DNA of 64,000 nucleotides, from positions 1 to 64,000 of IMG/VR virus record IMGVR_UViG_3300037466_002980. One strand, 5' to 3'. Below the pieces are notes generated by a model, which worked only from the letters and a program-made list of their open reading frames with translations, did no database searches and was not told the origin of the DNA. Source of the DNA: a virus (taxonomy: Duplodnaviria > Heunggongvirae > Uroviricota > Caudoviricetes). Below, piece by piece: positions 291 through 62,080 of this stretch. How positions within the stretch are numbered: position 1 is the first letter of the stretch; the number at the start of each line of letters is the position of its first letter. The translations under genes were made by a program, and so were the position numbers.

Positions 291-480
291 TACGTGTAAC
301 AGTTGGCATTGGCGGTGCTGGTCTAGATAAATCTTCTACTTTATTTTCAAGTTCCCGTATCTTTGATTCCAAGATTGAAATTTCTGTCAACAAATTCCTA
401 GCTTCAATCACAGTGATACTAAATTCAAAAACAGCCTTATTGGCATTCTGTAATCTTTTCTTTAATTTTTCAATTTCCAT
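268..480 (-). CDS. Hypothetical coiled-coil protein
   Basis: Coupled ORF with heptad pattern. Confidence 0.6.
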   Translation of the reverse strand: MEIEKLKKRLQNANKAVFEFSITVIEARNLLTEISILESKIRELENKVEDLSRPAPPMPTVTRIIDGGEF

Positions 481-832
481 TCTTCAATGTTTGAAAGAAA
501 ATAAATTCTTCAAGTTCCTTATCAAATTTCGAACTCCATTTTTGCCTAATTTTCTGAAATTCGATTTGTTTGTAATTTCTTTCTTTTTGTTTGAAACTAG
601 ATAATAGCTCAGGAGTTATAATATTTTCAGAAATTTGAAGTTTCTTACCAAAACTTCCCCAGAATTCATAGCAGGGATTTTTTAATTCTTCGTATCGTCT
701 AGTGGTAAAATTGAATTCTTTTCCAAAGGATGTTGATTTACCAGTTTCAACAAACCAACCCCAAACGGCACCCTTGCCGGAATCTTTTCTGATGCCGCAC
801 CATTGAACTTCAATAAATTTTTCAAAGTCCAT
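470..832 (-). CDS. Hypothetical protein, C-terminal EEFIFFQTLKNG motif
   Basis: Coupled ORF. Confidence 0.7.
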   Translation of the reverse strand: MDFEKFIEVQWCGIRKDSGKGAVWGWFVETGKSTSFGKEFNFTTRRYEELKNPCYEFWGSFGKKLQISENIITPELLSSFKQKERNYKQIEFQKIRQKWSSKFDKELEEFIFFQTLKNGN

Positions 833-1142
833 TCCTCAATCTTTCAACTATTTCAAATCTCTGTAATTCTTTCTTTAATTCTTCATCGATAATAAAAGAG
901 AAATCATAATAAGAATATCCTCTTCTTAGAAGTGTCTCAATATATCGTCGGGTTTGAAGTAAACTAAAACTTGATAAGGTACCGAGGCATTCTAAATTCA
1001 TAATCTTATCATGTGCTATATCAATACGAAAAGAAGACGACCGAAAATCTTTAACTATATTTCCAGTTGTACCTTTCGGGCGGGTAATAAGGACTCTTTC
1101 CACACCTTTCTTACCGGACCAGAAAACATTATATATTTCCAT
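822..1142 (-). CDS. Hypothetical protein, C-terminal EIVERLRNG motif
   Basis: Coupled ORF. Confidence 0.7.
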   Translation of the reverse strand: MEIYNVFWSGKKGVERVLITRPKGTTGNIVKDFRSSSFRIDIAHDKIMNLECLGTLSSFSLLQTRRYIETLLRRGYSYYDFSFIIDEELKKELQRFEIVERLRNGL

Positions 1143-1380
1143 TTAATTTCTTTTCTTTTATAACAAAATCTATAAGATCATGCAATGAAAGTAATTCTTG
1201 TTCTGATAATAAAGGAGAAGATTCTAATTCTGTGATTCCATTGGTACGTCTACAAAAAGAAAATGATATCTCCGGAGTATATTCACTCAACGATGTTTGA
1301 ATATATCCATTTGTAGTTTCAACGGTAATGGTGTTGATTCTTTTCTCTTGATTCTTTTCCTCTTTTATGGTATTTTTCAT
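1129..1380 (-). CDS. Hypothetical protein
   Basis: Coupled ORF. Confidence 0.6.
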   Translation of the reverse strand: MKNTIKEEKNQEKRINTITVETTNGYIQTSLSEYTPEISFSFCRRTNGITELESSPLLSEQELLSLHDLIDFVIKEKKLNGNI

Positions 1381-1871
1381 TTTATTTTTCTTTTATTTGC
1401 ACGAAGCTTTCTAAGCTCAAATTTCATTTCATCTTCGGTCTTAAAAGGACCCATATATTCGTATTGTTGAAGTGTTGCCCATTTTGGACACATAGATGGC
1501 ATCCAATTCTTCGGAAAATGTAGACAATAGTATCCTGCTACATAATAAACTTCGCTTGTCGCTTTCTTGCTAAAAAGTGGAAGTTTATTTCCCTTGATAA
1601 CCACTTCATTGGGATTATCGAAATCTACCGGATATCCATTAATGAAATAATCTTTCTTTACATTCTCTTCAATAGTCGGCGCAACATTATTGAAGATATC
1701 TTCATTGAAATATTTGTTTACTTCTTTTCTATCTAGGAAGTTTTTCTTCTCGCCTTTAATTGTTAGGATATATTTATTTTGTATTTCATTTAGAAGACCA
1801 ATTCTAAGATCGTCTGTATCACCTAACACTAACCATGAATTTTCTGTTATTGGTTTCAATCTAACTGTCAT
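1377..1871 (-). CDS. Phage hypothetical protein
   Basis: 164 aa ORF in operon with RBS. Confidence 0.75.
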   Translation of the reverse strand: MTVRLKPITENSWLVLGDTDDLRIGLLNEIQNKYILTIKGEKKNFLDRKEVNKYFNEDIFNNVAPTIEENVKKDYFINGYPVDFDNPNEVVIKGNKLPLFSKKATSEVYYVAGYYCLHFPKNWMPSMCPKWATLQQYEYMGPFKTEDEMKFELRKLRANKRKIK

Positions 1872-1872
1872 T

Positions 1873-4535: not shown

Positions 4536-4766
4536 TTATTTTTTAGATGCAATATACTTTGAGTTATTTAGCTTGAAAAATAATGCATCTTCTGAATCTT
4601 CGAAAAACCAATAAATTCCGTCTGACATATATCGAAAAGAAAATTTATACCTGCTTGGATGTCTTTGCAGGCTAAACTTCATTCCGTTGGTATAATCTTC
4701 ATATTGCATTTTAACAATAACCCAGTCTGGTGGAATCTTCTTCTTATTTAAATATTTCATTTCCAA
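4536..4766 (-). CDS. Small paralog family member (F-E-x2-ED-x3-F-x-LK)
   Basis: FFEDSEDALFFKLN. Confidence 0.7.
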   Translation of the reverse strand: MEMKYLNKKKIPPDWVIVKMQYEDYTNGMKFSLQRHPSRYKFSFRYMSDGIYWFFEDSEDALFFKLNNSKYIASKK

Positions 4767-5036
4767 TTATGAAAATTTCAAAATAAAGAATGTTAAATCG
4801 TCGTCTGTTTTAAATCGAACACTCGATGGATATGTCTCATGATATTCGTTAACGAATTCTCCATTATATCTCCCAAGTTCGTTATTTAAAGCTATTCGAT
4901 AATTGATATAATTTTCTTTATCATCTCGAGAAACTCCATCTATATATCCATATTCCTTTTTAAATTCGCGAATGAAATTGCTCCACCAGATAGGACATTC
5001 ATGTAGACTATCAGTTTCAAATTTAATTTCAATCAT
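4767..5036 (-). CDS. Small paralog family member
   Basis: CPIWWSNF...FKTDDDLTFFILKFS. Confidence 0.75.
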   Translation of the reverse strand: MIEIKFETDSLHECPIWWSNFIREFKKEYGYIDGVSRDDKENYINYRIALNNELGRYNGEFVNEYHETYPSSVRFKTDDDLTFFILKFS

Positions 5037-5278
5037 GAGTATTTTAAGATAAAATTAGTTGCATCTTCATCATTCTCAAATTCTATAGAAGCATCGGGTG
5101 CAGTCGAGTTAGGATAATTTTCTGTATCTATAATTAATTTTCCACCTAATTTCTCCAGTCCTCGTTCTAAATCTAGTTTAGTAAAATTACCACGAGTCTG
5201 ATCCTGAATTTCATTATAGAAATTCCGATACCAGTTTGGACAACTATATAAAAAACGTCCTATATGTAGAATAATCAT
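5033..5278 (-). CDS. Small paralog family member
   Basis: CPNWYRNF...FENDEDATNFILKYS. Confidence 0.75.
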   Translation of the reverse strand: MIILHIGRFLYSCPNWYRNFYNEIQDQTRGNFTKLDLERGLEKLGGKLIIDTENYPNSTAPDASIEFENDEDATNFILKYS

Positions 5279-5280
5279 GA

Positions 5281-5550
5281 TTAAAAATATTTTAATTTAA
5301 ATATCAAAAAATCTTCTTCTGTTTCAAAAATAACTCCACCCGTACTAAATTCTGTGCCTTCATTATTTTTGTATTTCTTCGCATTATGTTCAATCTTTAA
5401 TATTTTCTGAATAAAATCTCTTCGTTCCTTACCATGGAAATTTTGTAGTCTGTATTCATTCTTTCCAATAAAATTTTGCCAAATTTTTGGACAGGTAGAC
5501 AGATGTCCAGTTAATATCAATTCAAATGTATTACAAACATTTGTTTCCAT
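5281..5550 (-). CDS. Small paralog family member
   Basis: CPKIWQNF...FETEEDFLIFKLKYF. Confidence 0.75.
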   Translation of the reverse strand: METNVCNTFELILTGHLSTCPKIWQNFIGKNEYRLQNFHGKERRDFIQKILKIEHNAKKYKNNEGTEFSTGGVIFETEEDFLIFKLKYF

Positions 5551-5749
5551 GTTTCAATTTAAACGCTAAACAATCTTCAGTTGATTCAAATACAATAACA
5601 ATGATTGGTTTTATATTACCATTTTCATTTTCGTAAATTACATCTCCATACGCATTAGGCCAATCTTCAAGATATTTTTCAACGTCTCTAAAATTAAAAG
5701 CATATTGAAGTTTGCAAACTTTACCTTCAAAATCCTTAGGAATCTTCAT
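5531..5749 (-). CDS. Small paralog family member
   Basis: FESTEDCLAFKLKHG. Confidence 0.7.
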   Translation of the reverse strand: MKIPKDFEGKVCKLQYAFNFRDVEKYLEDWPNAYGDVIYENENGNIKPIIVIVFESTEDCLAFKLKHGNKCL

Positions 5750-6990: not shown

Positions 6991-7620
6991 TCACTGATCA
7001 CCCTTAAGCTTCTCTAACATTTTAGATGCTTCCAACAGATAAGTCAAATCATCTGCATTCAAACTACCTTTTTCCACAGCAATCTTAATTAAATCATTGA
7101 AGATTGAATCGCGTATCTTTCTTTTTGTTGTATCATAGATACCAGCTTTCTTTTCAACTTCTAAGCCGATATAAGAACTAAAATTTTCAGCCGCTTCTTT
7201 AACATCACTTTCTATTGTTGACTGCCATATAATCTTACCATCGTTATCTACACTAAAGACTGTTTCACCCTTTCTGTTCGTTAAGGTAAAAATATATGGA
7301 GAACTATATCCGAATGTTCCGGAATTGATATTAAATGTATATGGAAGTGTATATGTGGTTGCTGTTGTGGCCGCTGTTGTGACTGTTGGTGCCACATATC
7401 CGGTTGTAGTATAGGTAGGATATGAAAATCCACCAGTGGTTACTGCCCCGGTCGGTTGCCATTTAGGAACTGTCGTATTCATTGCACTGTCGGCAGCTAC
7501 CGTTTGTTCTTTGGCTTTAGCCTTTTCGATTGCATTTTCTTTCTTTATAAGTTTTTTCATAAGTTTTCTTATCATACCTCTCCTGTTTGTGATGCATCGA
7601 ATTTTTTCTCCCAATTCCAT
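6991..7620 (-). CDS. Hypothetical protein with Thr-rich linker (start uncertain)
   Basis: Ends MLEKLKGDQ. Confidence 0.65.
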   Translation of the reverse strand: MELGEKIRCITNRRGMIRKLMKKLIKKENAIEKAKAKEQTVAADSAMNTTVPKWQPTGAVTTGGFSYPTYTTTGYVAPTVTTAATTATTYTLPYTFNINSGTFGYSSPYIFTLTNRKGETVFSVDNDGKIIWQSTIESDVKEAAENFSSYIGLEVEKKAGIYDTTKRKIRDSIFNDLIKIAVEKGSLNADDLTYLLEASKMLEKLKGDQ

Positions 7621-8543
7621 GCATGTCTCACTATATCATCGATATTATATTTTGGCGACCAATCTAAGAGATTCTGTGCCTTAGAAATATCGGCCACTAA
7701 GGTAGCCGGATCACCTGCGCGCCTTGGTCCAAAACCAAAATTTGGTTCAACACCTAATACTTTCTTAGCTGAAGATACAAGTTCTTGAACACTTATGCCA
7801 TTGCTTCCACAACCAATATTAAATGTTTCATTTGCTGTTCCATTTAGAAAATCAATTGCCTTCACATGAGCATTGGCTAAATCAGCAACATGAATATAAT
7901 CTCTTACACAAGTACCGTCTTTGGTAGGATAATCATTTCCATATATTGTAAAATGTTCTTGTTTAATAATTTTATTACAAAGAATTGGAATAACATGTGT
8001 AGCTGGACGTTGGGTATATCCAAATCTTCCATTGGGATCTGCACCTGCTGCATTAAAATATCTGAAGATAACGTGTTTCATTCCATATGCCCTGGAATAA
8101 TCCTTAATTAATAATTCTCCAGCTACCTTAGTAGATGCATATGGATTTTCTGGATCATAGAAAAGATCTTCTGTTAATGGACCATTTTTTCCTTGTCTAC
8201 CATAAACATTCCCACTTGAACTGAAAATAATATTCTTTATTCCGGATGCCGACATGATATCAAGTAATGTCTTAATTCTGATTACATTATTTTCATAATA
8301 GGATCTTGGCTTAGTAACACTTTGTTCCACTAAATGATCTGCTGCCAAATGTATTACAGTATCATATTGAATCTTATTATGAAGAAAATAATCTAAATAA
8401 TCAATTTCAATATATTTGATATTTTCAATTCTAGTTTTTATTCTTCTATCAACTACAGTTACCTCATGACCTGAATTTTTTAATGCATCTGAAACTTGTG
8501 TTCCAACAAATCCTGCTCCACCGGTTATTAAAATATTACTCAT
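7572..8543 (-). CDS. galE: UDP-glucose 4-epimerase
   Basis: TGGAGFVG, HLAA, FSSS, YASTK, RYFNAAG, DGTCVRDYIHV, RRAGD. Confidence 0.93.
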   Translation of the reverse strand: MSNILITGGAGFVGTQVSDALKNSGHEVTVVDRRIKTRIENIKYIEIDYLDYFLHNKIQYDTVIHLAADHLVEQSVTKPRSYYENNVIRIKTLLDIMSASGIKNIIFSSSGNVYGRQGKNGPLTEDLFYDPENPYASTKVAGELLIKDYSRAYGMKHVIFRYFNAAGADPNGRFGYTQRPATHVIPILCNKIIKQEHFTIYGNDYPTKDGTCVRDYIHVADLANAHVKAIDFLNGTANETFNIGCGSNGISVQELVSSAKKVLGVEPNFGFGPRRAGDPATLVADISKAQNLLDWSPKYNIDDIVRHAWNWEKKFDASQTGEV

Positions 8544-8760
8544 TATCGGTACCTATTGTTAATTTCTCTATTATTTTATATTCCTCCCATGCTTTACGCA
8601 GGGCAGGATGTTTATCTAAATCCTCTCCGGCCGGTTCAAGAAGAAAAAGTCTTTTTTCAAGATCCTGTATTCTTTTCTCTAATCCAGCGATATAATCAGA
8701 GGTTAATTTCGATCCAGGCCTCGGTGGTGGTTTGATGTCAGAAGCATTAAACCACACCAT
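8536..8760 (-). CDS. Small coiled-coil protein, paralog of 8747..8998
   Basis: LEKRL...HPALRKAWEEYKIIEKL. Confidence 0.7.
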   Translation of the reverse strand: MVWFNASDIKPPPRPGSKLTSDYIAGLEKRIQDLEKRLFLLEPAGEDLDKHPALRKAWEEYKIIEKLTIGTDNE

Positions 8761-8998
8761 TGTTACCTCCGGTAACCAATTTTTCTATTAATTTATAATT
8801 TTCATATGCTTCTTTTAGAGCTGGAAATTTTTCATGCAATTCTGGATTATCATAAAGAACACATAATCTCTTTTCTATTAGATCAAGGCGTTCGTTTACT
8901 TTCCTAAGTTCGACCGAACTTCCATCTCCTACATATGTATAACCACCCATTGTGGGTGATCTCTGCTTATACATCGAATTAAAATCATTTATCGACAT
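8747..8998 (-). CDS. Small coiled-coil protein, paralog of 8536..8760
   Basis: IEKRL...FPALKEAYENYKLIEKL. Confidence 0.7.
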   Translation of the reverse strand: MSINDFNSMYKQRSPTMGGYTYVGDGSSVELRKVNERLDLIEKRLCVLYDNPELHEKFPALKEAYENYKLIEKLVTGGNNGVV

Positions 8999-9919: not shown

Positions 9920-10677
9920 TTCTTTACCTTCTTCTTACTCGCCGGCGCTGTTTTTTCTTTACCAGTGTCCTCCGTATAAATCCGGAGAATCTCGTCTCGA
10001 TTAACTTCTGTCGAAATTTTCTGAATGATTTCTTCTTCACTTTCGGTTGCTTTCATGGCTGAAATTCCAGTTGCATCGAGCCCAATATCTGGATTGTTTA
10101 TAACAGGTTCAACTCTATTTACTGGGGTATTATTTATATCCTCTTCAACAATACCATCATCTAAAACGATATCCGAAGAATATTCAAGCCAATCAGTAAA
10201 TCTGTTACTATCGGTTACTTCATGGAAAGGTAGACACCAAACTCCGGGATTAGTAGCCTGAAAATCAATATCATCAAATTTAATAGTTAGATTTGGATTT
10301 GATGTTTCTAGTTTAGGAATTCTAACACTTAGCAACGGGACAAAAATTCTTGATTGCCATACACCCGGTGTGAGCATTTTCAGAACTGTTTCGTGTTGAT
10401 GTGCTGGATAATCCAATGTAACCCAATATCCTCTATCTAGAAGATCGACAATTAATTTATTCCAAGTTTGACCAAAATATTCAGTATAATGCGTTGCATC
10501 AAACGAATGGTTAGCACCTAAAAAAATATGAGTAACCTTATGTTTTCTTGCAACTTCTAGAACATCATCTGTTTTAGCGTAATCAACTACAAATAATGTT
10601 TTCTTTGAAAAGGCTGGCGTTTTTTCTACTTCCGACCCAATAAAATATTTTACTTTTTCATGACCACTTCTTATCAT
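9916..10677 (-). CDS. Hypothetical protein in the deazaguanine/glycosylation operon
   Basis: 253 aa; HIFLGANHSF and TNPGVWC motifs; coupled to the DpdL-like gene. Confidence 0.75.
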   Translation of the reverse strand: MIRSGHEKVKYFIGSEVEKTPAFSKKTLFVVDYAKTDDVLEVARKHKVTHIFLGANHSFDATHYTEYFGQTWNKLIVDLLDRGYWVTLDYPAHQHETVLKMLTPGVWQSRIFVPLLSVRIPKLETSNPNLTIKFDDIDFQATNPGVWCLPFHEVTDSNRFTDWLEYSSDIVLDDGIVEEDINNTPVNRVEPVINNPDIGLDATGISAMKATESEEEIIQKISTEVNRDEILRIYTEDTGKEKTAPASKKKVKK

Positions 10678-10871
10678 ATTTTCCCTTTTAATCTTTTAAT
10701 CATTTCTTCTAATCGAATTTGATATGTTTTTCTTTCTATAAAAATAACTAGAACTCCACACATTCCTATTAACGATAAACCAACAAGAAAATCTCCAAGT
10801 ATTAGAAATAACATTCCGAACATAAGTGTTGCGGCCATTCCTATAAATGCTACAAATAAACTTTCCGGCAT
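10674..10871 (-). CDS. Two-TM small membrane protein
   Basis: Two hydrophobic segments; EEMIKRLKG tail. Confidence 0.7.
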   Translation of the reverse strand: MPESLFVAFIGMAATLMFGMLFLILGDFLVGLSLIGMCGVLVIFIERKTYQIRLEEMIKRLKGKI

Positions 10872-11089
10872 TATCTTTTCAACCTACCCATTAATAATTC
10901 TTCTTCAACAAGATACTGTCTATATTTTACTAGAGAAAAGCCATGGAATGCAATAGTACCAAGCATGAAAATTATACCAGCAATTGCAAGAAATGGTTTA
11001 AAAACTAATGCCGGAATTATAAAAATTTCGGCTATCATTAGAAAACCTGTAATCCAAAAAATTAGTTTCCAGATTCTGGAGTTAAGCAT
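10871..11089 (-). CDS. Two-TM small membrane protein
   Basis: EEELLMGRLKR tail. Confidence 0.7.
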   Translation of the reverse strand: MLNSRIWKLIFWITGFLMIAEIFIIPALVFKPFLAIAGIIFMLGTIAFHGFSLVKYRQYLVEEELLMGRLKR

Positions 11090-11364
11090 TATCTTGGTCC
11101 GGTATAACTGGAGGTATATTTTATGCCTTTTAACCTATTAAACAATTCGTCTTCTTTATTCCTTTTTTTCTGTGCATAGGCTAACATAATCACCCCTTCC
11201 CATATTCCGGCGGCAGTTACCAACTCAAACGAATTAAATACATCATAAGGTTCGGGAAGTATCATCAATATGATTGTGACTATAATAGATATCATCAATA
11301 GCCACACACCTGCTTGACCGATCGCATTCCCGAAGGGATCATCACACAATCTAGCGGCGGCCAT
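11089..11364 (-). CDS. Two-TM small membrane protein
   Basis: EDELFNRLKG tail. Confidence 0.7.
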   Translation of the reverse strand: MAAARLCDDPFGNAIGQAGVWLLMISIIVTIILMILPEPYDVFNSFELVTAAGIWEGVIMLAYAQKKRNKEDELFNRLKGIKYTSSYTGPR

Positions 11365-11686
11365 ATCTTAACCTATTAATAACAGCTTCTTCGATTTTAA
11401 AATGCTCTTCGGATTTACCGTGAGCAATTAAACTACCAAATGCACAAAGGGCCTGTATGAATGCCATTACAATAAATGCAAGAAAAACATAGGAATTTGA
11501 ACTGAAAAATATTACAGGAAAAGTTATTAGGCTAAAAACAAAACCTAATCTCATCATTCTTACAGAATAGATATTCCAACGTTCACTTTCAAAAACGGAG
11601 GTAGGCATAGGCCATATGAAAGAAAGAAAACCCTTCTTTCTTACAGGCCTATCTACTGGATCATTAGCATTAAGATCTGGAATCAT
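11351..11686 (-). CDS. Two-TM small membrane protein
   Basis: EEAVINRLRYG tail. Confidence 0.7.
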   Translation of the reverse strand: MIPDLNANDPVDRPVRKKGFLSFIWPMPTSVFESERWNIYSVRMMRLGFVFSLITFPVIFFSSNSYVFLAFIVMAFIQALCAFGSLIAHGKSEEHFKIEEAVINRLRYGRR

Positions 11687-12942: not shown

Positions 12943-13164
12943 TTAGGATTGATCGTATTTAACAATATCAAATTCTGTTTCTGCATAATCTGTATAAATG
13001 GGTTCTCCCATAAGCATCCATTCAAGTTCGTCAACTTCATTGTAATCAGGAGTATATCTGCGACGGTAAATGTGTTTCAACCAAATTCTTTTATTAGAGA
13101 TGGTAATCACAGGTTTCCACGCGAACCATTTCTTCCAAGATTTATCATTTTCCAAAGATTTCAT
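12943..13164 (-). CDS. Hypothetical protein (WKKWFAWKPV motif)
   Basis: Coupled ORF. Confidence 0.65.
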   Translation of the reverse strand: MKSLENDKSWKKWFAWKPVITISNKRIWLKHIYRRRYTPDYNEVDELEWMLMGEPIYTDYAETEFDIVKYDQS

Positions 13165-13510
13165 CTGCCAATGATAACCAAAAATTAATCTGAGATTTAA
13201 TTATATCTTTCCTGAGATGATATTCCGCAAAGGTCCGAAAAATAGCATGGTCAAAATCTTTTATTGTATTTAAGTTTACCGAAGGATCCACATTTATGGA
13301 ATCTTCATATATTGTTTCAATCCAAATTGGATAGCCTCCTAACATATAACTTCTGCAATCAATTACCACATTTTGCAATGTAAATAATGCCACCTCTGGA
13401 TTCTTTTTATAAAGTTCCAGCAAAGGAGCAAGCCCATCCTCAACTTTTTCTGATTCAAAATTATAATTGAAATTATATTTTAATTTCAAATATGTTTCGT
13501 GTTCTTTCAT
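13145..13510 (-). CDS. Paralog family with N-terminal YLKLKY
   Basis: Shares N-terminus, VALF core and W..EI end with neighbours. Confidence 0.7.
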   Translation of the reverse strand: MKEHETYLKLKYNFNYNFESEKVEDGLAPLLELYKKNPEVALFTLQNVVIDCRSYMLGGYPIWIETIYEDSINVDPSVNLNTIKDFDHAIFRTFAEYHLRKDIIKSQINFWLSLADEIFGK

Positions 13511-13872
13511 GAAAAGATCTCACCAGAAATAGAAAACCACTTATAAAAATGATCAATAATTTCTTTTGAATTTGCTTTCTTACAATAAAAAATATCCCAA
13601 GCACAACTATCTAAATCTTCAACTATATAATCAAATTCATTGCCCTCAAGATATTCATTAAAATATTCATATGTTCCAGCATGAGTGTAATCTATAGATT
13701 GTTGAAGATCTCTCTGTAGAAGAAAATCGATTTGAAGATTTAAGAATGCGAATAATGCTACATCACCATAATCTTTCAAAAGCTGATGTAATACTGTATA
13801 AGGATTATTGTCATCTTCGACATCATAATCAATTTTATATTTTAATTTCGCAAATAATAGATTATCTTTCAT
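13507..13872 (-). CDS. Paralog family with N-terminal FAKLKY
   Basis: Same layout as 13145..13510. Confidence 0.7.
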   Translation of the reverse strand: MKDNLLFAKLKYKIDYDVEDDNNPYTVLHQLLKDYGDVALFAFLNLQIDFLLQRDLQQSIDYTHAGTYEYFNEYLEGNEFDYIVEDLDSCAWDIFYCKKANSKEIIDHFYKWFSISGEIFS

Positions 13873-14309
13873 TAGAAAAATTTCTTTAATTTCGGATCTT
13901 CCAAACCAGCTAACTTATTTAAACTTTTTTCTTGTTCGGCAAATTCATATTCTTGATTAACACGCGCGGTAAGATAGTTTCGGATTGTGGCCCTATTTTC
14001 CCAAATAAAATTTTCATATCTGAATAGACCATTACAAGGACAATCTAGGACAAAAACAATTCCGTTTATTTCTCTTCCGGAAACGCAATCATAACCATAA
14101 TGGAGAATTACCTTATCTGGACCTTTTTTATTTTCTTCATCACAGTAAGATTTCCAATTATCCACATCATAGGAACAGTCTGAACCCGGACATAAATGTA
14201 ATCTTCCACACCATCCACATTCAAGTTCAGCGCTTCCTACACCAAAGGTAGAAATAGAATCAATAAACATCTCTGATGGAGGTGTCGAACTATCTCTAGG
14301 ATTACTCAT
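13872..14309 (-). CDS. Cys-rich hypothetical protein (possible Zn-binding)
   Basis: CGWCGRLH...CPC. Confidence 0.7.
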   Translation of the reverse strand: MSNPRDSSTPPSEMFIDSISTFGVGSAELECGWCGRLHLCPGSDCSYDVDNWKSYCDEENKKGPDKVILHYGYDCVSGREINGIVFVLDCPCNGLFRYENFIWENRATIRNYLTARVNQEYEFAEQEKSLNKLAGLEDPKLKKFF

Positions 14310-14656
14310 GAATTATGAATTTCTTCGCTTACTAGAATCCAGTCACCAAGTCGATTGACTACTATATCGTTGGTAACACCCGCTCTTTCCAATACAGCCA
14401 TTTCATCGGAAATAGTAGTTTCGGACATTTGAATGTGAGCTTCGTTCAAAGGATCTACATAACCTTTTAAAAGTAATTCTGTCGTTTTTTCGGGATCATT
14501 GCGATACTGTTCGTATTCTGAAAGTAAATCTGCAATAAATTGATACAATGCAAAAGATCCAATTTCTGTAGATGAAAGTGATCTAATCGTATCAAATGAT
14601 ATATTATTATCTAAATTATATCGAAGCTTTAAATAAAACTTATCTTCTTCCTTCAT
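14306..14656 (-). CDS. Paralog family with N-terminal YLKLRY
   Basis: MKEEDKFYLKLRY...WILVSEEI; start moved to the ATG matching its paralogs. Confidence 0.7.
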   Translation of the reverse strand: MKEEDKFYLKLRYNLDNNISFDTIRSLSSTEIGSFALYQFIADLLSEYEQYRNDPEKTTELLLKGYVDPLNEAHIQMSETTISDEMAVLERAGVTNDIVVNRLGDWILVSEEIHNS

Positions 14657-14790: not shown

Positions 14791-15048
14791 TTATTTGGAA
14801 TGTTTGAGCACATACGCAATCGCATCCTCACCCTGTATTATAACAGATTGACTTGAATAGACCAAAAAACCACTATGAAATCGTGACTGACCTGGAGAAA
14901 CCACCTCTACAGAGATCATTTTCGGATTTAACTTTATTACCTTGCATATTTTCATTACATTATTTCTTGGAACAGCGACATAATTTCCCAATTTAACTTC
15001 GACCCCAAGAATATCAAAGTGTTTCTTTTCAATTTTTTCTGTAGTCAT
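14791..15048 (-). CDS. Hypothetical SH3/KOW-like small protein
   Basis: DILGVEVKLGNYV; ends EDAIAYVLKHSK. Confidence 0.65.
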   Translation of the reverse strand: MTTEKIEKKHFDILGVEVKLGNYVAVPRNNVMKICKVIKLNPKMISVEVVSPGQSRFHSGFLVYSSQSVIIQGEDAIAYVLKHSK

Positions 15049-22884: not shown

Positions 22885-22892
22885 ATCTTTTC

Positions 22893-48259: not shown

Positions 48260-48697
48260 TTATCCTAATCTATCAAATCTTTTCATCCAAGAAATAATTT
48301 CCGGATCTGGTTGATTATGCTCGCTTAGAGCGGAAGAATCTCGAAGTATTTTCCTAAGTGTTTCTACTTGAATAGCATATAGCTGATCAAGGTCTCCTAG
48401 AAACATATCTGGAAGATTATACATATCAGATCCATCATAGAATGCATGTTCTGCAAGATCAGCCTCCAACGGTGTCAGTTTTCTTCCTAATTTTGATTGT
48501 TCTAAAATTTCTTTTCTAAATGAAGCAGCCGGTATTTCATATTTACTCAACATCCTTAACATTTCCGGTGAATTAGAATATGTATCCATTGTGTGTTCAC
48601 CATTGGGATCATCGCCGAGTATATCTGTAAAGATATTCAATTGTAATAAATTATCAATCGAATCTCCTGCATAAAAGAAATTTTCATCTAATTTCAT
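48260..48697 (-). CDS. Probable internal head protein
   Basis: MKLDE leader; ends PDPEIISWMKRFDRLG. Confidence 0.6.
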   Translation of the reverse strand: MKLDENFFYAGDSIDNLLQLNIFTDILGDDPNGEHTMDTYSNSPEMLRMLSKYEIPAASFRKEILEQSKLGRKLTPLEADLAEHAFYDGSDMYNLPDMFLGDLDQLYAIQVETLRKILRDSSALSEHNQPDPEIISWMKRFDRLG

Positions 48698-48699: not shown

Positions 48700-48897
48700 T
48701 TATCCTAATTTAAAATAATTCTTAAATCTTGTTATCATAGTTATAATTACTGATACGTCACTCAATGGAAGATTAGAATGTGACATTCTTTGAACTACTT
48801 CCTCAGCTCTCATAATTAATTCATCATCGCTCATATTGAGTGAAGAATCATTTTCTTTGAGCTCTTGATTATTGGTTTTGATTTCAGATAATTTCAT
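48700..48897 (-). CDS. Probable internal head protein
   Basis: MKLSEI leader; ends RF...KLG. Confidence 0.55.
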   Translation of the reverse strand: MKLSEIKTNNQELKENDSSLNMSDDELIMRAEEVVQRMSHSNLPLSDVSVIITMITRFKNYFKLG

Positions 48898-48898: not shown

Positions 48899-50587
48899 TT
48901 AACCTAATTTAGAAAATCTTTTCATCCATGAAATAATTTCAGCATCTGGTTCTTGTGTTTCTTCTAATTTGCCTGCTGCTGCCATCTTAGCACGAACTGC
49001 ACCAGCAACACGTTCTCCAGCTTCTTTACTACCATATTCTTTTGCAGCATTTTTAGCAACAGCCTTAAATCCGGTGGTAGTTCCGTTATTATGCTTACCT
49101 TCGTCTTTTTCTTCTAGTTTTTCCGAATCTTCCATATCATCGACATCGCCATCGGAATCAGTTTCTTCTCTTACTCCAGTCTTAGATTTTAAATCTTCAA
49201 GACCTTTCTTGCTGCTAATATTATCCTTCTCTTTGTCTTCAAGGTCCTTCTTCGAAACTTTCCAATCATCTTTTCCGGATTCTTTTCTCTTATAAGCGGG
49301 AATTTCATCTTTCTTTGGTTCTTCTTCGAGCTTCCTTCTTTGAAGAACAGGTGCAACTGATTCAACTAATTTATCATATTTCTTTAATGATTGAATCATT
49401 GCTGCAATATCTTTATCAATATTTTCCATAAACATTTCTCCGATTTGTTCCGGTGGATTTTCCGGTGGGTTGGAATCCGACGAAGATGGTTGAGTTTCAC
49501 TACCTTCAGGATTTTCTACAGGTTTTGGTTGCGGACGCCTCTTATCAGTAAAGTATCCTCTATCTTTTAATGCAACAAGTTTCTTAATTTCATTATCAAT
49601 ATCATAATCATTAATTCTTGTAGCAGGATCTTTTTGAATTACCGGATCCTTAGCAAGTTCATCTAAGGTACTCTGAATCTGTTCCTTATGTTCTTTCAGT
49701 CCTTTGACTATATCATAATAAAGATACGGAAATTTTTCTTTAATTTTTTCTTTATCAGCCGGATCATCTGCAAGATCATGAAAACAAGGAGTTCCAGCAT
49801 CGAATTGATACTTTTCTGTTCCTTCGGCTTTCTTTTGAACAACAGCACCTACTTTATTAACATATTCTGGATTTTTCGGATAAACCTGAAATAACATTGC
49901 CCTTCCAGAATAAATTTTATAATTGGTATCACTTTCTGAATTGGCGGTACACCACTGTGTACCTAATCCTAAAACTCTAGCTCCTGCCCAATTGAAAACC
50001 GTATAGATTTTATAATCATCATTATCAACAATTTTGGCAGTTTTTGCTAATTTCTTAAGTGCCGCTTCTCTAGCTGCATTTCGTACATCTCTCAATTTAT
50101 CTTGATAATGAGTAGACATATATTTTCCAACGTCACGAACACCATTAAATCTAAATAAATCTCTATGAGTAGGTTCGAGTAATTCTTGCTGGTCAGGTCC
50201 GCGCCTATTTCTTAACGCATACCAGTCGCGAAGGTTCATGTTCATAACACCAATAAGATCTTCCCAGGTATGGCTACCTGCAATATATCTTCTTACAATC
50301 CATTCGTTATTAACACCTTCTCTTGAATAGACTGTTCCTTCGTATCCAATTCTTTCAATTTCATCTAGTTGTTCTAGAAACCACTTTGCCAATTGTTCGT
50401 CGGGCATCTTTGGGAAGGTCTTAGCAGCACCGGCTGGAAAAACTTTTGGATTGGTACGAACATCATCTCGGATTGCATCTGCTAGATCTGAAACCATTTT
50501 CTTATTCGCAAGAACGCGCTGGCTCCCCTTTGAAAGTTGAGCCTCTGTAAGAAATGTTCTAAGTAAGCTACGAAATAGACTTTTCAT
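48899..50587 (-). CDS. Probable head/core protein
   Basis: FLTEA leader, GTQWCT motif, many LxE sites, ends PDAEIISWMKRFSKLG. Confidence 0.65.
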   Translation of the reverse strand: MKSLFRSLLRTFLTEAQLSKGSQRVLANKKMVSDLADAIRDDVRTNPKVFPAGAAKTFPKMPDEQLAKWFLEQLDEIERIGYEGTVYSREGVNNEWIVRRYIAGSHTWEDLIGVMNMNLRDWYALRNRRGPDQQELLEPTHRDLFRFNGVRDVGKYMSTHYQDKLRDVRNAAREAALKKLAKTAKIVDNDDYKIYTVFNWAGARVLGLGTQWCTANSESDTNYKIYSGRAMLFQVYPKNPEYVNKVGAVVQKKAEGTEKYQFDAGTPCFHDLADDPADKEKIKEKFPYLYYDIVKGLKEHKEQIQSTLDELAKDPVIQKDPATRINDYDIDNEIKKLVALKDRGYFTDKRRPQPKPVENPEGSETQPSSSDSNPPENPPEQIGEMFMENIDKDIAAMIQSLKKYDKLVESVAPVLQRRKLEEEPKKDEIPAYKRKESGKDDWKVSKKDLEDKEKDNISSKKGLEDLKSKTGVREETDSDGDVDDMEDSEKLEEKDEGKHNNGTTTGFKAVAKNAAKEYGSKEAGERVAGAVRAKMAAAGKLEETQEPDAEIISWMKRFSKLG

Positions 50588-53044
50588 TTATTTTGCAGTA
50601 ACAAAGGCATCTCTTAGTGCATCTAAAACAGGACGTAATGCCATTGCATTTCCTTGTGCTGCCGAATGTAACCATTCCAAAGCCTTTTCGTCATGGATAC
50701 TATCGGTATTGGTAGCATTCATAACCGCCTTAGCAATTGTTCTAGAAATGGCATCTTGACCCACTGGTGATACATTAATTGCACCTTGTTTATCAAGTTC
50801 AATATTGATTCTTTGAATATTAGCACCGGATGCCATTAATTGCTGTGCCTTTTCAAAGTTACCACCCTGCATCATTCTTTGAGCACTCTTGTGAATGTTA
50901 CTTAATGCTTGGTGTGCAAGTGTACGAAGAACTGGTCTAACTCTTTCAAAGACTCTCTTAAAATCTTGATCTAGATTTGGTTCTCCAGCATTACCTGCCT
51001 TCATTTGCTTTCTTTGATCCATTTTGTCTCTTTCAACAGCACTGTTAGAAACATAAACTGTACGAAGTCTACCAATCTGGTCAGCAAGAAGATTGAAAAC
51101 ATTATCTGGATTTTGCATATCTTTTCCATGATGAAGGCCCATACGAGCTTTCATAACTGTTGGATCAGACCATCTTTCTTCTTCTCCGTCGTCATCATCG
51201 ACTTTCTTTGGACGAAGTAATTCTGGATCAACCTGTTCACCATCGTCCTTAAAAGCAATAATCTGATATGGCAATGTACTATCTCCACCTGGATCGTATG
51301 GCTGATTTTTCTTTGCCTTCGCTGCCATTCTGTCCTTAATATGTTTTTCATAAGGCTTAATACCAGCAACTCCGTTTTCAGCTGATACAATAATAAAGTT
51401 ATCTGGATTTCTCTTGTATTCTTTCCATAATAATCTTTCACTAAATGGTGCTGGTTGAAGATCTGCATCATTGCTTAGTTTATGCATTCTATGTAACCAA
51501 CGAACTAATTTCTGTCCACCTTTCTGCTTTCCAATTAATCTACTCAATGAACTTTCTTCAATATAAGATTCATAAATTTCGTCGTCCCACTTGAGCTGCT
51601 CAAAGAGCGATGCTTGTGAAGTTAGGCCGGATGTTTCGGCTAATCTAGGCATATCTTCATTACCTCCAATGGCGTCTTGTGCGTTATTGCCTTGTAATTT
51701 TGCATCTTTATCTGGATAGGCATAGATATATTCTCCCATTGGATCTCTTACCACATGGAATCTCATACCATCCTTTCTATATTCCTTAACATCGGGTTTA
51801 TATCCCGGAATTGCTAAACCATGGCTGACATCCATTGTACCGAGATCCTCGGCATTCTTCTGTAACCAAGCTGCCACTGCTCTCACCTCAGAAGATGAAT
51901 TTGGACCTTGTCCATTTACGTTAGCAATTGTCTTGATTCCTTCTAATGGAGTCGATGTGAATAGACCAAATACTTGTCTGCCCATTCCTCTCACATTTCT
52001 ATCACGATATCCAGGCAAGTCACCTACGGTATGCCATTCGGGATATTCCATTCCCGATGTTCTTAATTCTCTGCTAATTAATGCAGGAACATCTTGCATA
52101 TTTCTTAATACAACGTCCCTGGTAGGATCTAATTCTGGTTCGTCGCCACCGGCCTCTGGATCAATTCTATTCATGAAATCTCTCATTTGGTCTGTAGGAC
52201 GCATTTGAGATAATCTGCCCTGAATAGATGATTTAGATGCAGATGGTAAATCCATCGGTGAATCGGAATGAAATCCGTCATCTGATCCTGCTGGTTGAAC
52301 TGGCAAGTTACCTTTTTTCTGTCCAAGTATGTCACCGAAATCCATGTCGTCGGGCATATCATCTGTCTTGGTTTTTTGTGGCCTTGATGGTGGTTCAGGC
52401 ATATCAACTTCTGCCTCTACAACTTCACCCATAACTTTACTATAGCAAGATTTTAGATCTTCCGGAGAAAGATTGTATAAATCGCTTTCGTTGTGGTATT
52501 GACTGTCTTTTGTAAGACCCATATTCTGCATAGAAAGGATACTATGAATCATATTCTCCGGTGATTCGTCCTCTGGTGCTTCTTCTAATTCATCACCATG
52601 AGTTAACGGTGATTCTTGTCCGACTTTTCTAAATTCAGTCTTGTGAACGATATCGCCTAATTTAACACCCTTTCCGGAACGTGGACGTTCCGTCTGATGA
52701 AATTCTGTTTCTTCTTCGTCGACTGCAAATGAACCAGCGCCCATACCACCTACAGAACCTTCCTCTTCCATATCATTAAATGGAATTTCAACTTCAACTT
52801 CACCCGTGTGTCCTTCGTGGCCTATGCATTCTTGTCCACACATTGGGCAAACTTCATCATTCATTCCGGGATTCATTCCAGGATTCATTTCTGGTTGCAT
52901 TTGTCCTTGTGGATCTGGAAAACATGTTTGACAATCCCAATTTCCACATCCACATTCAATATTTTCTTCGATTTCTTTACCTTCGCCGTTGAGTGCTTCT
53001 TCAACTGTCGAAAGCCATTTTGAAAAACTATCTTTTTGATCCAT
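50588..53044 (-). CDS. Large acidic probable head/core protein
   Basis: 818 aa; late box 53082-53089; multiple (L/I/V)EE sites. Confidence 0.65.
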   Translation of the reverse strand: MDQKDSFSKWLSTVEEALNGEGKEIEENIECGCGNWDCQTCFPDPQGQMQPEMNPGMNPGMNDEVCPMCGQECIGHEGHTGEVEVEIPFNDMEEEGSVGGMGAGSFAVDEEETEFHQTERPRSGKGVKLGDIVHKTEFRKVGQESPLTHGDELEEAPEDESPENMIHSILSMQNMGLTKDSQYHNESDLYNLSPEDLKSCYSKVMGEVVEAEVDMPEPPSRPQKTKTDDMPDDMDFGDILGQKKGNLPVQPAGSDDGFHSDSPMDLPSASKSSIQGRLSQMRPTDQMRDFMNRIDPEAGGDEPELDPTRDVVLRNMQDVPALISRELRTSGMEYPEWHTVGDLPGYRDRNVRGMGRQVFGLFTSTPLEGIKTIANVNGQGPNSSSEVRAVAAWLQKNAEDLGTMDVSHGLAIPGYKPDVKEYRKDGMRFHVVRDPMGEYIYAYPDKDAKLQGNNAQDAIGGNEDMPRLAETSGLTSQASLFEQLKWDDEIYESYIEESSLSRLIGKQKGGQKLVRWLHRMHKLSNDADLQPAPFSERLLWKEYKRNPDNFIIVSAENGVAGIKPYEKHIKDRMAAKAKKNQPYDPGGDSTLPYQIIAFKDDGEQVDPELLRPKKVDDDDGEEERWSDPTVMKARMGLHHGKDMQNPDNVFNLLADQIGRLRTVYVSNSAVERDKMDQRKQMKAGNAGEPNLDQDFKRVFERVRPVLRTLAHQALSNIHKSAQRMMQGGNFEKAQQLMASGANIQRINIELDKQGAINVSPVGQDAISRTIAKAVMNATNTDSIHDEKALEWLHSAAQGNAMALRPVLDALRDAFVTAK

Positions 53045-59038: not shown

Positions 59039-59296
59039 TCAATAATTACGATCTCTGTGCCAAAGTCCAAGATCCATCATTTCTTCAACTTGTCTTTCCC
59101 AACGTCTACGCGCCTGTTTACGCATTCTTTGTTTCTTAACAGCAGGTTTCTCAAAGGCACCTCTATCTTTAATTTCTTTTAATAATCCAGAATCCTGAAC
59201 TTTCTTTGACCAGGTACGTAATGCTCTTCCGAGATCATCTTTTACCTCTACTGATATTCCTCTTCTCTTTGGCTTAGAATCTCTATACTTACTCAT
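59039..59296 (-). CDS. rpsU: Ribosomal protein bS21
   Basis: ALR..KK..G.L.EIK.R..FEKP..K.R.K.A.RR. Confidence 0.88.
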   Translation of the reverse strand: MSKYRDSKPKRRGISVEVKDDLGRALRTWSKKVQDSGLLKEIKDRGAFEKPAVKKQRMRKQARRRWERQVEEMMDLGLWHRDRNY

Positions 59297-60515
59297 TATT
59301 TGCTCTTTTCTTTGCTTTATAGACATATTTCATACTTCCATTCGCATCAACAAAGATTTTGTTGACACCTTCTTTTGATAATCGTGGTAGAACAAATTGT
59401 GTATTTTGCAAATCTTTCTCCATTATTGAACGGAGTCCTCTTGCACCAACTTTCTGTTTCAAACACTTATCTGCCACATTAAGTAGGTATTTATCATCAA
59501 ACTCTAATGCAATACCTTCAAATTTAAATAATTCTTTATATTGACTTACAATGCTATTTTTTGGTTCCTTTAAGATCCTAATCATCATATCAGGTGTTAA
59601 ATCGTCAAATACTACAACCACTGGACAACGTCCCACAAACTCCGGTATCAGTCCATATTTAATAAAATCTTCAGGAGTTGCATCTTTAACAGTCTGTGAG
59701 AAAGGAGATACAACATTTAATTGAGCACCAATTCCAATGCTTGTTTTAGATCTATTTTTCTTAATAATTTCATCAAGTCCAACAAATGCACCACTACATA
59801 TAAACAAAACATTCTTGGTATCGAATTCACATATTTCGTCATACATATCTTCAATCTTAACTGTTGTTCCTTCGATTAATTTAAGAAGTGCCTGTTGCAC
59901 TCCTTCACCCGAAACATCACGCGTGGACGAGGATAATTCTGTCTTTTTACTCTTCTTATCAATTTCATCTAAGAAGATTATTCCTTGTTGAGCTTTTTCA
60001 ACATCATCATTTGCATTTTGAATTAATCTTCTAATGAGATTTGTAACATCCTCGCCAACATATCCTGCTTCTGTTAATGATGTTGCATCTGCCACCACAT
60101 AAGGAATATCAAATAATTTAGCTATGGTTTTGACTGTTAGTGTTTTTCCCGAACCACTAGATCCTACCATTAATAAATTTGATTTTTCAATCTCGGTATC
60201 AGTTTTTCCATTTATTCTTTTATAGTGATTATATACTGCTACCGAAATTGCAATTTTTGCATCATCTTGACCAATTATATATTCATCAAGGTGTTTTTTA
60301 ATTTGTTCTGGGGATGGAATCTTTTCTCGTTTTTTCTTAGTCGTTAATGGCTCTTCTTTATGTAAGATATCATATGTAACATCAACGCATTCATTACAAA
60401 TATAGATGTTCTTACCGTGAAATTCTGGTCCCTCAATCATTTGTTCAACTTCGTGACGTCCTTTGTTACAGAAAGAACAATTGATTACTTTTTTTAGATT
60501 ATCTTCGGTTCCCAT
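59289..60515 (-). CDS. clpX: ClpX unfoldase
   Basis: CSFC..C..C Zn finger, YIIGQ, KSN, GSSGSGKT, GYVGEDV, DEIDK, RDVSGEGVQQ, GARGLRS. Confidence 0.95.
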   Translation of the reverse strand: MGTEDNLKKVINCSFCNKGRHEVEQMIEGPEFHGKNIYICNECVDVTYDILHKEEPLTTKKKREKIPSPEQIKKHLDEYIIGQDDAKIAISVAVYNHYKRINGKTDTEIEKSNLLMVGSSGSGKTLTVKTIAKLFDIPYVVADATSLTEAGYVGEDVTNLIRRLIQNANDDVEKAQQGIIFLDEIDKKSKKTELSSSTRDVSGEGVQQALLKLIEGTTVKIEDMYDEICEFDTKNVLFICSGAFVGLDEIIKKNRSKTSIGIGAQLNVVSPFSQTVKDATPEDFIKYGLIPEFVGRCPVVVVFDDLTPDMMIRILKEPKNSIVSQYKELFKFEGIALEFDDKYLLNVADKCLKQKVGARGLRSIMEKDLQNTQFVLPRLSKEGVNKIFVDANGSMKYVYKAKKRANNE

Positions 60516-60516
60516 A

Positions 60517-61764
60517 TTATTTCCCCACAAATTCTTTCAGCCAACTTAGTGGCCTAGGGTATTTATTTGAATTTGTGTTTTGATTTTTATTTTCAGGAGA
60601 AGATTCTTTATTCTTAACTAAAAGATCCCCATCTTTTAATTTTTGCGGAATAAAATGTGGTTCATTGGAATAATCTAAATCTTTACTCCGTATTTCCTGA
60701 GTCTCTGGTTGATTAAATTCCGAATCGATTTTATTTTCTTCTTCCGACTGTCGTGTCTCACCGAACTCGGAATCCTGTCTGGATATTTCACTGGATTTCG
60801 ATACGATTTCAGATTCCTCACTCCGTGGTAAAACGGACCGTTCTTCCTCCAAAGTTTCCGTCTCTTCTTCATCTATTACCTCTTGTGGGCCCGTTTCCGT
60901 ATCTTCATCATATCGTAAGTTTCCTGTCTGGAATACGATTTTCCTATTCTTCTTAGAGCCGACATGCTGCGAATCGGTAGTTTTTTCCGATTCTTTAGTC
61001 TCCTGACTAACTTCTTTTTCATTCGTGAGTCTTAAAAATGTGTGATTTGCTGCGAGTAATAGTATAACTGCCAAAGGTTCAAGTGTTAAGGAAATTATTA
61101 AGGTAAAAATCTTTACCGCAGATTCGATATTCTTATTAGCATCATCTGAAGAATATATTAATTCAGCAATATATCTAATAGGTCCAACCTCCAATTGTAC
61201 CTTTCTTAATTCGGATTCTAACTTAAATTTATCCGAAGAAAGTTCATCGATTCTTTTCTGTGAAGCATCGATATTATCCCTAAGTTCTTTTCTCTGCGAC
61301 GCCTGGGATTTTCTTATTGACACTGATTTATCTGTTCTATCTTTTCCAAGATATGAATTTACTGTAGCATCAAGTTGATTGATAATTTTCTGATTATCAG
61401 CTATTGAAGATTTCTCTCGATCGATTTGTTCATTTAAACTTTCAATCTTTGCTGAATTATCAATTGTTGATGCATTCTGTTCTAGATGTGCTTTTGAAAG
61501 AAATCCAAAAACACCAATACTGGTAATCAATGATAATACTATTGTTAGAAATATCAATGGAAGTTTAAGTTTCCATGTTGAAAACTGCCAATTTCTATAT
61601 AACCAGCTAGTTGTAACTAGTTTTCCACCTTCGAGAACTAATCCCATTATGAGTGCATGAAATGCTGCACCTGCGTAAATGGTCATAATTCCTATAATGG
61701 AAAACCAGCCAGAAACAAAACCTAAAGATAACGCTGACAAGAGCGTCAATAATGCAAATATCAT
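60517..61764 (-). CDS. Multi-TM coiled-coil membrane protein
   Basis: Three N-terminal TMs, coiled coil, EVGPIRYIA, TM, acidic tail. Confidence 0.75.
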   Translation of the reverse strand: MIFALLTLLSALSLGFVSGWFSIIGIMTIYAGAAFHALIMGLVLEGGKLVTTSWLYRNWQFSTWKLKLPLIFLTIVLSLITSIGVFGFLSKAHLEQNASTIDNSAKIESLNEQIDREKSSIADNQKIINQLDATVNSYLGKDRTDKSVSIRKSQASQRKELRDNIDASQKRIDELSSDKFKLESELRKVQLEVGPIRYIAELIYSSDDANKNIESAVKIFTLIISLTLEPLAVILLLAANHTFLRLTNEKEVSQETKESEKTTDSQHVGSKKNRKIVFQTGNLRYDEDTETGPQEVIDEEETETLEEERSVLPRSEESEIVSKSSEISRQDSEFGETRQSEEENKIDSEFNQPETQEIRSKDLDYSNEPHFIPQKLKDGDLLVKNKESSPENKNQNTNSNKYPRPLSWLKEFVGK

Positions 61765-61777
61765 TTATTGTTTATTT

Positions 61778-62080
61778 TTAGATAAGCCCTTTTATTTTAA
61801 GGGACAAGGCATCTACACCTGCAATTTCATATATGTTTACATCTGCCCCAATTAATAAGGCAGTCTTGCCTTCGGGAAGTATCTTACTAAGAGTTTCCCT
61901 TGTGTGTTCCAGATATGCTGTTGAAAGAAATTTTGTTTCTCTAGGAAGCTGAACAATTAGAACAGTATTCGGATCACTTTCCATTTCGTGAAGGAAACCA
62001 ATTGTACCTTCCGTAGGACTTTTGATTTCTTTCATATTAATATCCTTCGAAAAGATCTTCGTTATCTTCCCTGTGTCCAA
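61778..62080 (-). CDS. Hypothetical protein ending DALSLKIKG
   Basis: ORF in operon. Confidence 0.6.
   Translation of the reverse strand: MDTGKITKIFSKDINMKEIKSPTEGTIGFLHEMESDPNTVLIVQLPRETKFLSTAYLEHTRETLSKILPEGKTALLIGADVNIYEIAGVDALSLKIKGLI

Follow-up and report, generated by a model that had tools for sequence, protein, structure and literature searches.

A conserved terminal helix on expanding families of small proteins in an uncultivated jumbo phage

The window analysed here, i.e. the first 64 kb of the 362,810-bp contig IMGVR_UViG_3300037466_002980 (36% GC), originates from an uncultivated jumbo phage and encodes small proteins that share a portable terminal helix. In this element of about 12 residues, an acidic cap ([ED][ED][ED]) is combined with a hydrophobic stripe and with [KR]-L-[KR] as core, after which an aromatic residue or glycine follows. 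Its carriers are small (55-125 amino acids, aa) accessory proteins, in which the helix is situated at the extreme N- or C-terminal end. Within each family the helix is constant and the rest of the protein variable; moreover, proteins with different predicted folds carry it, one and the same protein body may occur with or without it, and it is selected at the protein level. Our tentative preference is that the helix serves as a shared docking handle, a constant end on variable bodies that might be recognised by one common partner, because its charged and hydrophobic positions are better conserved than any other part of six families without further relationship, and because it is used at both termini and occurs as an addition to a protein body.

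Occurrence of the helix at protein ends

Genes were called greedily by coding potential, which resulted in 567 open reading frames (ORFs) genome-wide; approximately 90% of the genes on the contig are encoded by the minus strand. A preliminary description of this DNA had proposed that a short amphipathic helix ends more than 25 unrelated small proteins and acts as a docking or localisation signal, or as a degron, for one phage-encoded hub such as the Clp machinery. All peptides quoted there are present at the 3' end of the named minus-strand ORF, but their position is near-terminal and not strictly terminal, with 1-6 residues following before the stop codon in most cases and 18 in the ORF at 35114. 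In the genome-wide check, terminal enrichment above background was observed with three kinds of tests. Expected counts for C-terminal patterns were derived from the interior rate of the proteins. Among the 567 ORFs, the strict pattern of the preliminary description was found at 8 protein ends versus 0.6 expected, and [KR]L[KR][YGFH] occurred within 12 residues of the C-terminus in 26 proteins versus 3.4 expected. A weight matrix of the helix with 12 columns, for which at least 10 bits were counted as a match and shuffled proteins served as background, matched 69 proteins of this genome versus 2.8 in the shuffled set. Finally, [KR]L[KR] is about threefold denser in the first 20 plus the last 15 residues than in the interior of proteins of up to 130 aa, and the N-terminal ends of large proteins are not enriched. 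Collectively, pattern, matrix and density tests indicate that the enrichment is real and confined to small proteins. The helix matrix also matched 38 proteins versus 1.3 in a related 385-kb phage with 43% GC, hence, AT-richness is not the cause of the enrichment. The claimed absence of the motif from large core and structural proteins was borne out by the matrix and density tests, apart from matches at chance level. The N-terminal occurrences at 13145-14656 and 16939 were likewise found again, and far more such copies exist outside the window.

What could not be maintained is the unrelatedness of the more than 25 proteins. The carriers in the window represent about 10 lineages, 10 of the proteins belonging to one family, here called family A, and three to the all-helical family fam3; weak mutual similarity also exists within the four membrane proteins at 10674-11686 and within the trio of genes at 470, 822 and 1129. 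All-against-all BLAST comparison showed that the carriers fall into several large paralog families. These families are strongly expanded and fast-diverging, and a rough tally attributes 100-140 of the approximately 570 genes to them. Twenty carrier proteins were compared with Pfam-A and PHROGs, and none of them gave a match above the curated threshold.

Family A with the helix at the C-terminus

Members of family A end in F-x-F-E-x-E-E-D-x-L-x-F-K-L-K-Y. The BLAST component of this family comprises 24 members; an iterated hidden Markov model (HMM) with 84 profile positions, of which 1-70 are matched by most members, extended it to 43, and 46 ORFs were found genome-wide at E<1e-3, 10 of them in the window. 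The latter are homologous over their full length (HMM E 1e-10 to 5e-16), hence, the "tag" is a family signature in family A. The members in the window and one marginal relative are:

4536-5749, minus strand: five family-A genes in tandem (4536-4766, 4767-5036, 5033-5278, 5281-5550, 5531-5749), HMM E 1e-10 to 5e-16, alignment A1
20953-21264, minus strand: dispersed family-A member, 103 aa, HMM E 1.5e-11, C-terminal module E 1.3e-5
39224-39565, minus strand: family-A member with a 25-residue extension beyond the helix, HMM E 1.5e-13
40967-41197, minus strand: family-A member, 76 aa, HMM E 2.6e-12
43258-43509, minus strand: marginal family-A-like protein, HMM E 0.037
44357-44584, minus strand: family-A member, 75 aa, degenerate helix, HMM E 2.8e-11
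46270-46491, minus strand: family-A member, 73 aa, HMM E 1.7e-10

Each gene of the array at 4536-5749 encodes a final beta strand followed by the acid-capped helix. A protein with an ending nearly identical to that of the marginal relative at 43258-43509 exists in the related phage G001 (14.9 bits).

The family was modelled with AlphaFold2 (AF2) from a 32-row alignment (predicted local distance difference test, pLDDT, 76) as a small beta-alpha-alpha-beta-beta-alpha domain, in which the last helix is the motif; it corresponds to residues 78-88 in the model of the protein encoded at 5281-5550. The order of secondary structures is that of KH type I domains. In the comparison with KH- and RRM-like folds, Foldseek returned E values of at least 0.44 and the best VIA Z was 4.7, and a conserved G-x-x-G was not seen by eye in alignment A1. 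The models of family A and fam3 showed no clear fold match in PDB and BFVD.

A library of 1.8 billion proteins contained relatives of family A in 465 cluster representatives at the cut-off of E<=1e-3, and the best 150 of these 465 are all 57-144 aa long. The 10 clusters that were looked up had no informative names, and a word-indexed protein search returned only the copies of this genome. Long tandem arrays of family-A genes are also found on other phage contigs (L008, L010). The members on other contigs nearly always stop one residue past the aromatic residue, and fusions with two family-A domains contain the motif after each domain.

Family A is also relevant to the main rival of the docking handle, according to which the helix has no shared function. 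The recurrence of the ending would then result from paralogy, with the terminal helix as folding nucleus, combined with generic helix chemistry (acidic N-cap, Lys-rich C-terminal end, Schellman-type Gly C-cap) and with ribosome-binding sites that are read as K-G. In this regard, 46 carriers form one family with full-length homology. In the family-A model, the helix belongs to the fold itself and closes the domain as its final secondary-structure element, which speaks against a floppy tag. We regard this explanation as somewhat less likely than a docking handle; the observations on the other families described below speak against it.

Families sharing only the helix

The same helix, but without the preceding strand, forms the extreme N-terminus in the families fam3 (20 copies), N336 (at least 9 copies), f291 (3 copies) and f1 (31 copies, in a variant register). 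It is placed at the C-terminal end in f176 and in the C-terminal half, 10-39 residues from the end, in f299. The members of fam3 and f1 in the window are:

13145-13872, minus strand: two fam3 members (13145-13510, 13507-13872) with N-terminal helix, alignment A2 and AF2 model
14306-14656, minus strand: third fam3 member, likely start at 14656 and not at 14683, alignment A2
16939-17157, minus strand: f1 member with N-terminal helix variant of the E-E-D-T-F-x-K-L-K-R type, as indicated by the ORF translation, the f1 N-termini and the f1 matrix; likely start at 17157

Alignment A2 of fam3 shows an invariant L10, and K11 and Y12 are conserved in at least 90% of the sequences. The AF2 model of this family (pLDDT 76) contains five helices; the motif forms the first one (residues 2-12), which is followed by a loop of 11 residues and four long helices. 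Hence, fam3 and family A differ in their secondary-structure class, the latter being modelled as an alpha/beta domain. An origin of fam3 by circular permutation of family A was considered and dropped after the all-helical model had been obtained. No match to fam3 was found in the five relatives in which it was sought. The approximately 31 copies of f1 (57-123 aa) are distributed over 120-357 kb of G000 in addition to the copy at 16939-17157. They start with the near-invariant M-T-E-E-D-T-F-x-K-L-K-R-x-P and contain G-W-T-x-x-E-Y near the C-terminal end; G001 encodes eight homologs, and f1 has no match in Pfam and PHROG.

When the families A, fam3, N336, f291, f1 and f299 were compared with each other by hhalign, only 12-23 columns were shared, always those of the helix, and these helix-confined matches reached E values of 1e-4 to 5e-5. 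The most conserved window of eight columns coincides with the helix in 6/6 families, with pairwise identities of 0.40-0.71 versus 0.19-0.39 overall. Furthermore, a matrix derived from family A recognises the other families, and so does one derived from f1, with cross-family scores of 15-23 bits. The bodies of f291 and f338 can be aligned (hhalign probability 89%, alignment A3); f291 possesses an extra N-terminal helix of 11 residues, and f338 instead ends in the related helix E-E-L-x4-K-L-M-G. These data argue against a helix devoid of shared function, because the cross-family scores and the helix-confined matches exceed what generic helix features would give, the same sequence is found on alpha/beta and all-alpha folds at opposite termini, and it appears as an add-on in f291 compared with f338. 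Hence, one part of the original proposal stands: a short helix recurs at the termini of proteins with different predicted folds.

In G001, C-terminal copies mostly end in F and N-terminal copies in Y, and three N-terminal carriers had no significant match to the HMMs of fam3, N336, f291 and f1. As a separate observation, proteins of 90-91 aa encoded at 14818-15090 of L008 and 328388-328663 of G000 bear the helix 12-15 residues from the end (E-E-D-A-x-A-M-K-L-K-G-I-P-E); the pair represents an orthologous carrier outside the arrays on two distantly related phage contigs.

Selection on the peptide

It might also be possible that a DNA or RNA signal near gene boundaries, such as a promoter, a translational operator or a recombination site, is incidentally translated. 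The motif does lie close to the beginnings of genes, being encoded by the 5' codons of one gene or by the 3'-terminal codons of the gene upstream of it; its coding sequence is AT-rich, and leucine codons other than YTR are used somewhat sparingly (CTC 3 and CTT 1 of 40). However, the codons of the core leucine vary (TTA 16, TTG 10, CTA 8, others), and the preference for AAA as lysine codon equals the usage of this genome before Leu and Tyr codons. The nucleotide pattern is in frame 0 in 23/32 occurrences, with three located in non-coding DNA, and conservative exchanges in the motif are common (K/R, Y/F/W, L/I/M). Moreover, the motif is kept in the relative with 43% GC and in orthologs with synonymous changes. 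Variable Leu codons, context-dependent AAA usage, reading frame and conservative exchanges together argue for selection on the peptide and not on the DNA. An account of the core motif at the DNA or RNA level was therefore rejected on the basis of the codon and frame analysis, and we regard a nucleic acid signal as extremely improbable. In the codon counts, the phenylalanine preceding lysine in the motif is encoded by TTC in 11/20 cases versus 32% genome-wide, perhaps because TTTAAA is avoided.

The looser K-L-K-G ending

The preliminary description had also assigned seven "soluble" proteins and four membrane proteins to the same helix. Most of the soluble examples fail with the family-A helix matrix (-6.8 to 7.8 bits); over all 11 proteins, the scores of 10/11 range from -6.8 to 8.9 bits, the exception being the membrane protein at 11089 with 11.8 bits. 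The four membrane proteins do end in a looser, R-L-K-G type sequence, but mostly without a match to the family-A helix. The looser ending can be written as hydrophobic-x-[KR]-L-[KR]-(x)-G-x0-3-stop. The following examples were inspected:

470-1380, minus strand: three adjacent genes (470-832, 822-1142, 1129-1380) with ends L-[KR]-N-G-x or L-N-G-x-x in the sequence
6991-7620, minus strand: 209-aa protein with the end K-L-K-G-x-x and orthologs in 5 related phages
10674-11686, minus strand: four small membrane proteins (10674-10871, 10871-11089, 11089-11364, 11351-11686) with an R-L-K-G type end in the sequence
14791-15048, minus strand: 85-aa protein with a strand and then a short helix of this type, weak example, matrix 7.8 bits
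35114-35404, minus strand: previously proposed example with a motif-like stretch 18 residues before the stop codon and no score (0.3 bits)
46889-47140, minus strand: previously proposed example, not a significant member of family A (HMM E 1.8)
61778-62080, minus strand: 100-aa protein with the end K-I-K-G-x-x, weak example, matrix -6.1 bits

The carriers of the looser ending represent about seven lineages, namely a small membrane family, an array spanning the genome ends, and singletons. The four membrane proteins show weak similarity to a pair of membrane proteins at 77005/77286 and are absent from the syntenic place in relatives. The trio at 470/822/1129 is similar to the genes at 358809/359131 at the opposite end of the genome. 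The protein at 14791-15048 appears mostly beta by eye from its sequence, and an 82-aa ORF with a similar ending exists in the relative L015.

Outside family A, [KR]L[KR].?G occurs within 12 residues of the C-terminal end in 13 proteins versus 1.3 expected. Part of this excess is related to the dense packing of the genes. Glycine at position -3 is enriched 2.4-fold (28 versus 11.9) if the next start codon lies within -14 to +7 nucleotides (nt) of the end of the stop codon, compared with 21 versus 19.5 elsewhere, and K/R at position -4 is likewise enriched only where the next start is close. Several of the K-G codons (AAAGG, AGAGG, AAGGG) are situated 5-8 nt before an overlapping ATG; in the gene at 10674 they serve as ribosome-binding site for an overlapping ATG that follows 5 nt later, and in 470 and 822 the start codon ATG of the following, overlapping gene lies within the N-G codons. 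With the excess of glycine at -3, the downstream Shine-Dalgarno sequence thus leaves its imprint on the tail of the upstream protein, for example in 10674, 822 and 470, and this is the third component of an explanation without shared function. As sole cause of the K-L-K-G ending, the overlap with ribosome-binding sites was rejected, since it accounts for Gly at -3 and K/R at -4 but not for the correlated pattern. A column-wise shuffle within each C-terminal position, which keeps the composition of every position including the ribosome-binding-site effect, left 0.21 proteins expected with the full looser pattern versus 10 observed. In addition, the orthologs of the protein at 6991-7620 in 5/5 relatives (33-41% identity) keep E/D-K-L-K-G plus 2-3 residues, and they do so with synonymous codon changes and in different downstream contexts.

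A further contribution might be made by helix capping. In the Schellman or alpha-L motif, the C-terminus of a helix is capped by glycine at position C', which fits the hydrophobic-x-[KR]-L-[KR]-G-x-hydrophobic ends of the membrane and soluble examples, but leaves the conserved acidic cap with the L-x-F-K-L-K-Y core and the N-terminal copies unexplained. The looser ending is hence a mixture, which consists in part of the shared motif, in part of a Gly helix cap and in part of a downstream Shine-Dalgarno sequence read in frame. For the proposal of one signal on unrelated proteins this means that most of its carriers are paralogs and that part of the K-G-x-x-stop endings comes from the next ribosome-binding site.

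Possible relation to the Clp machinery

The genes in the window include those for a family-B DNA polymerase and an ATP-dependent DNA ligase as well as three components of a Clp system:

27154-29373, minus strand: ClpA/ClpB-like double AAA+ unfoldase, Pfam AAA_2 (3e-56), Clp_N and ClpB_D2-small
44901-45503, minus strand: ClpP, Pfam CLP_protease (1.9e-68)
59289-60515, minus strand: ClpX with N-terminal zinc finger, likely ATG start at 60515, Pfam zf-C4_ClpX and AAA_2

The clpX ORF was originally listed as 59289-60530 with a TTG start; an ATG five codons further in (60515), directly before the zinc finger, is the likelier start. ClpP, ClpA and ClpX have been reported from some jumbo phages, in which their targets are unknown (PMC7824862).

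The presence of a ClpA-like protein, ClpP and a ClpX with zinc-finger N-domain in the same phage would be consistent with the helix being a degron or a tether for these proteins, so that early small proteins would be cleared, or would deliver targets, once the Clp proteins have been made. About one fifth of the genes, encoding diversifying small early proteins, would then be handed via the helix to the phage ClpX/ClpA-ClpP, either as substrates of timed clearance or as adaptors for host targets. If this Clp link were true, the set of small proteins would represent substrates or an adaptor library delivering host targets for destruction. The signals of AAA+ unfoldases need free termini, to which the motif is limited at either end, and ClpX recognises N- and C-terminal motif classes. 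Moreover, the tail of SspB binds the zinc finger of ClpX, and the alternating hydrophobic/basic core of the helix loosely recalls that tail. Compared with the known ClpX/ClpA signals, i.e. the ssrA tag, the basic C-terminal end of the MuA type, the N-motif classes and the SspB tail, the phage helix is likewise short, found at either end and a mix of hydrophobic and basic residues. However, the classical ClpX signal is the ssrA-type L-A-A carboxy end, whereas the carriers end in K-Y-S, K-F-S, L-L-N, K-G-x-x and similar sequences. In addition, the family-A model shows the motif as a folded helix and not as a disordered tail, the matrix matches in f299 and several singletons are 17-39 residues away from the C-terminal end, and family A with its helix is widespread on metagenomic phage contigs. 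When a family-A protein was modelled in complex with two copies of the zinc-finger domain of the phage ClpX, the score was 0.01; this value, obtained without controls, speaks neither for nor against an interaction. Overall, we consider a role of the helix in Clp recognition improbable.

Possible function of the helix and comparison with known systems

As a common handle, the helix would dock variable small proteins onto one shared putative partner of host or phage origin, and each carrier family might represent a collection of adaptors or effectors whose docking end is constant. Several observations weigh against this interpretation. In the family-A model, the helix is an ordinary constituent of a compact domain (pLDDT 81-88), which would also fit a purely structural role. 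The matches in f299 and in several singletons, 17-39 residues from the C-terminal end, are not terminal. Acidic N-cap, basic C-terminal end and Gly cap are generic helix-stabilising features. As the carriers are paralogs, the counts within families cannot be taken as independent events. A concerted change of the motif across families between genomes was not seen in the limited comparison with G001.

Instead of docking to a separate partner, the helix might mediate self-association or localisation, for example homo- or hetero-oligomerisation between carriers, binding to the membrane surface or loading into the virion. In alignments A1 and A2, two hydrophobic stripes (L/L and F/Y) with Lys between them would permit two-sided packing, and several carriers are small membrane proteins. 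However, the acidic cap is unfavourable for membrane binding, and at least 100 packaged protein species appear implausible, thus, we give little credence to this possibility. Virion loading can be compared with the capsid targeting sequence of phage T4, a short N-terminal peptide shared by different phage proteins (IPI-III, Alt) that is removed by the prohead protease. Similar to what is proposed for the helix, a short terminal peptide shared by several small phage proteins serves as portable address. However, the T4 signal is N-terminal only and cleaved, while the helix described here occurs at either terminus of approximately 100 or more proteins, with most copies being C-terminal.

Lineage-specific tandem arrays of small proteins have precedents in jumbo phages, as shown by the expansion of a zinc ribbon to about 35 copies in Bacillus phage G (PMC7824862). 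In contrast to that case, family A, fam3, f1 and the other families have no Pfam or PHROG match and are linked by the shared terminal helix. According to IMG/VR, the present phage has many relatives with genomes of 210-385 kb. Among cultured phages, a megablast search with the stretch 48899-53044 and tblastn searches with the 818-aa protein encoded at 50588-53044 and with one relative of family A returned nothing.

Further observations in the window

Other protein ends in the window also attracted attention. The minus-strand genes at 48260-48697 (145 aa) and 48899-50587 (562 aa), which are linked by BLAST, encode nearly identical last 16 residues, E-I-I-S-W-M-K-R-F-x-[RK]-L-G, and the gene between them (48700-48897, 65 aa, minus strand) has the related end F-K-x-Y-F-K-L-G. 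This looks like a second, different C-terminal tail shared by proteins of very different size. The adjacent paralogs at 21593-22234 (213 aa) and 22246-22917 (223 aa) both end in G-[FY]-T-A-W-N-A and may be structural or fibre proteins. The paralog pair at 8536-8760 (74 aa) and 8747-8998 (83 aa) has matching C-terminal helices, Y-K-[IL]-I-E-K-L-x-x-G, and represents a small tandem duplication.

Conclusions

Portable terminal peptides and expanded families of small proteins are both known kinds of elements; this particular motif, its families and their linkage by it had no match in the curated libraries searched. For future genome scans, our results contain two warnings. Paralogy inflates the apparent number of unrelated proteins with a shared tag, and where genes are tightly packed, the ribosome-binding site of the next gene shapes the last residues of the upstream protein. 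Large phages possess hundreds of small genes without known function, and here up to one fifth of the genes belong to a few expanding families that are joined by one terminal helix. Should the helix indeed serve for docking, one pull-down experiment could be enough to reveal the hub and would provide a first foothold on the "dark matter" of phage genomes in a widespread clade of uncultivated jumbo phages.

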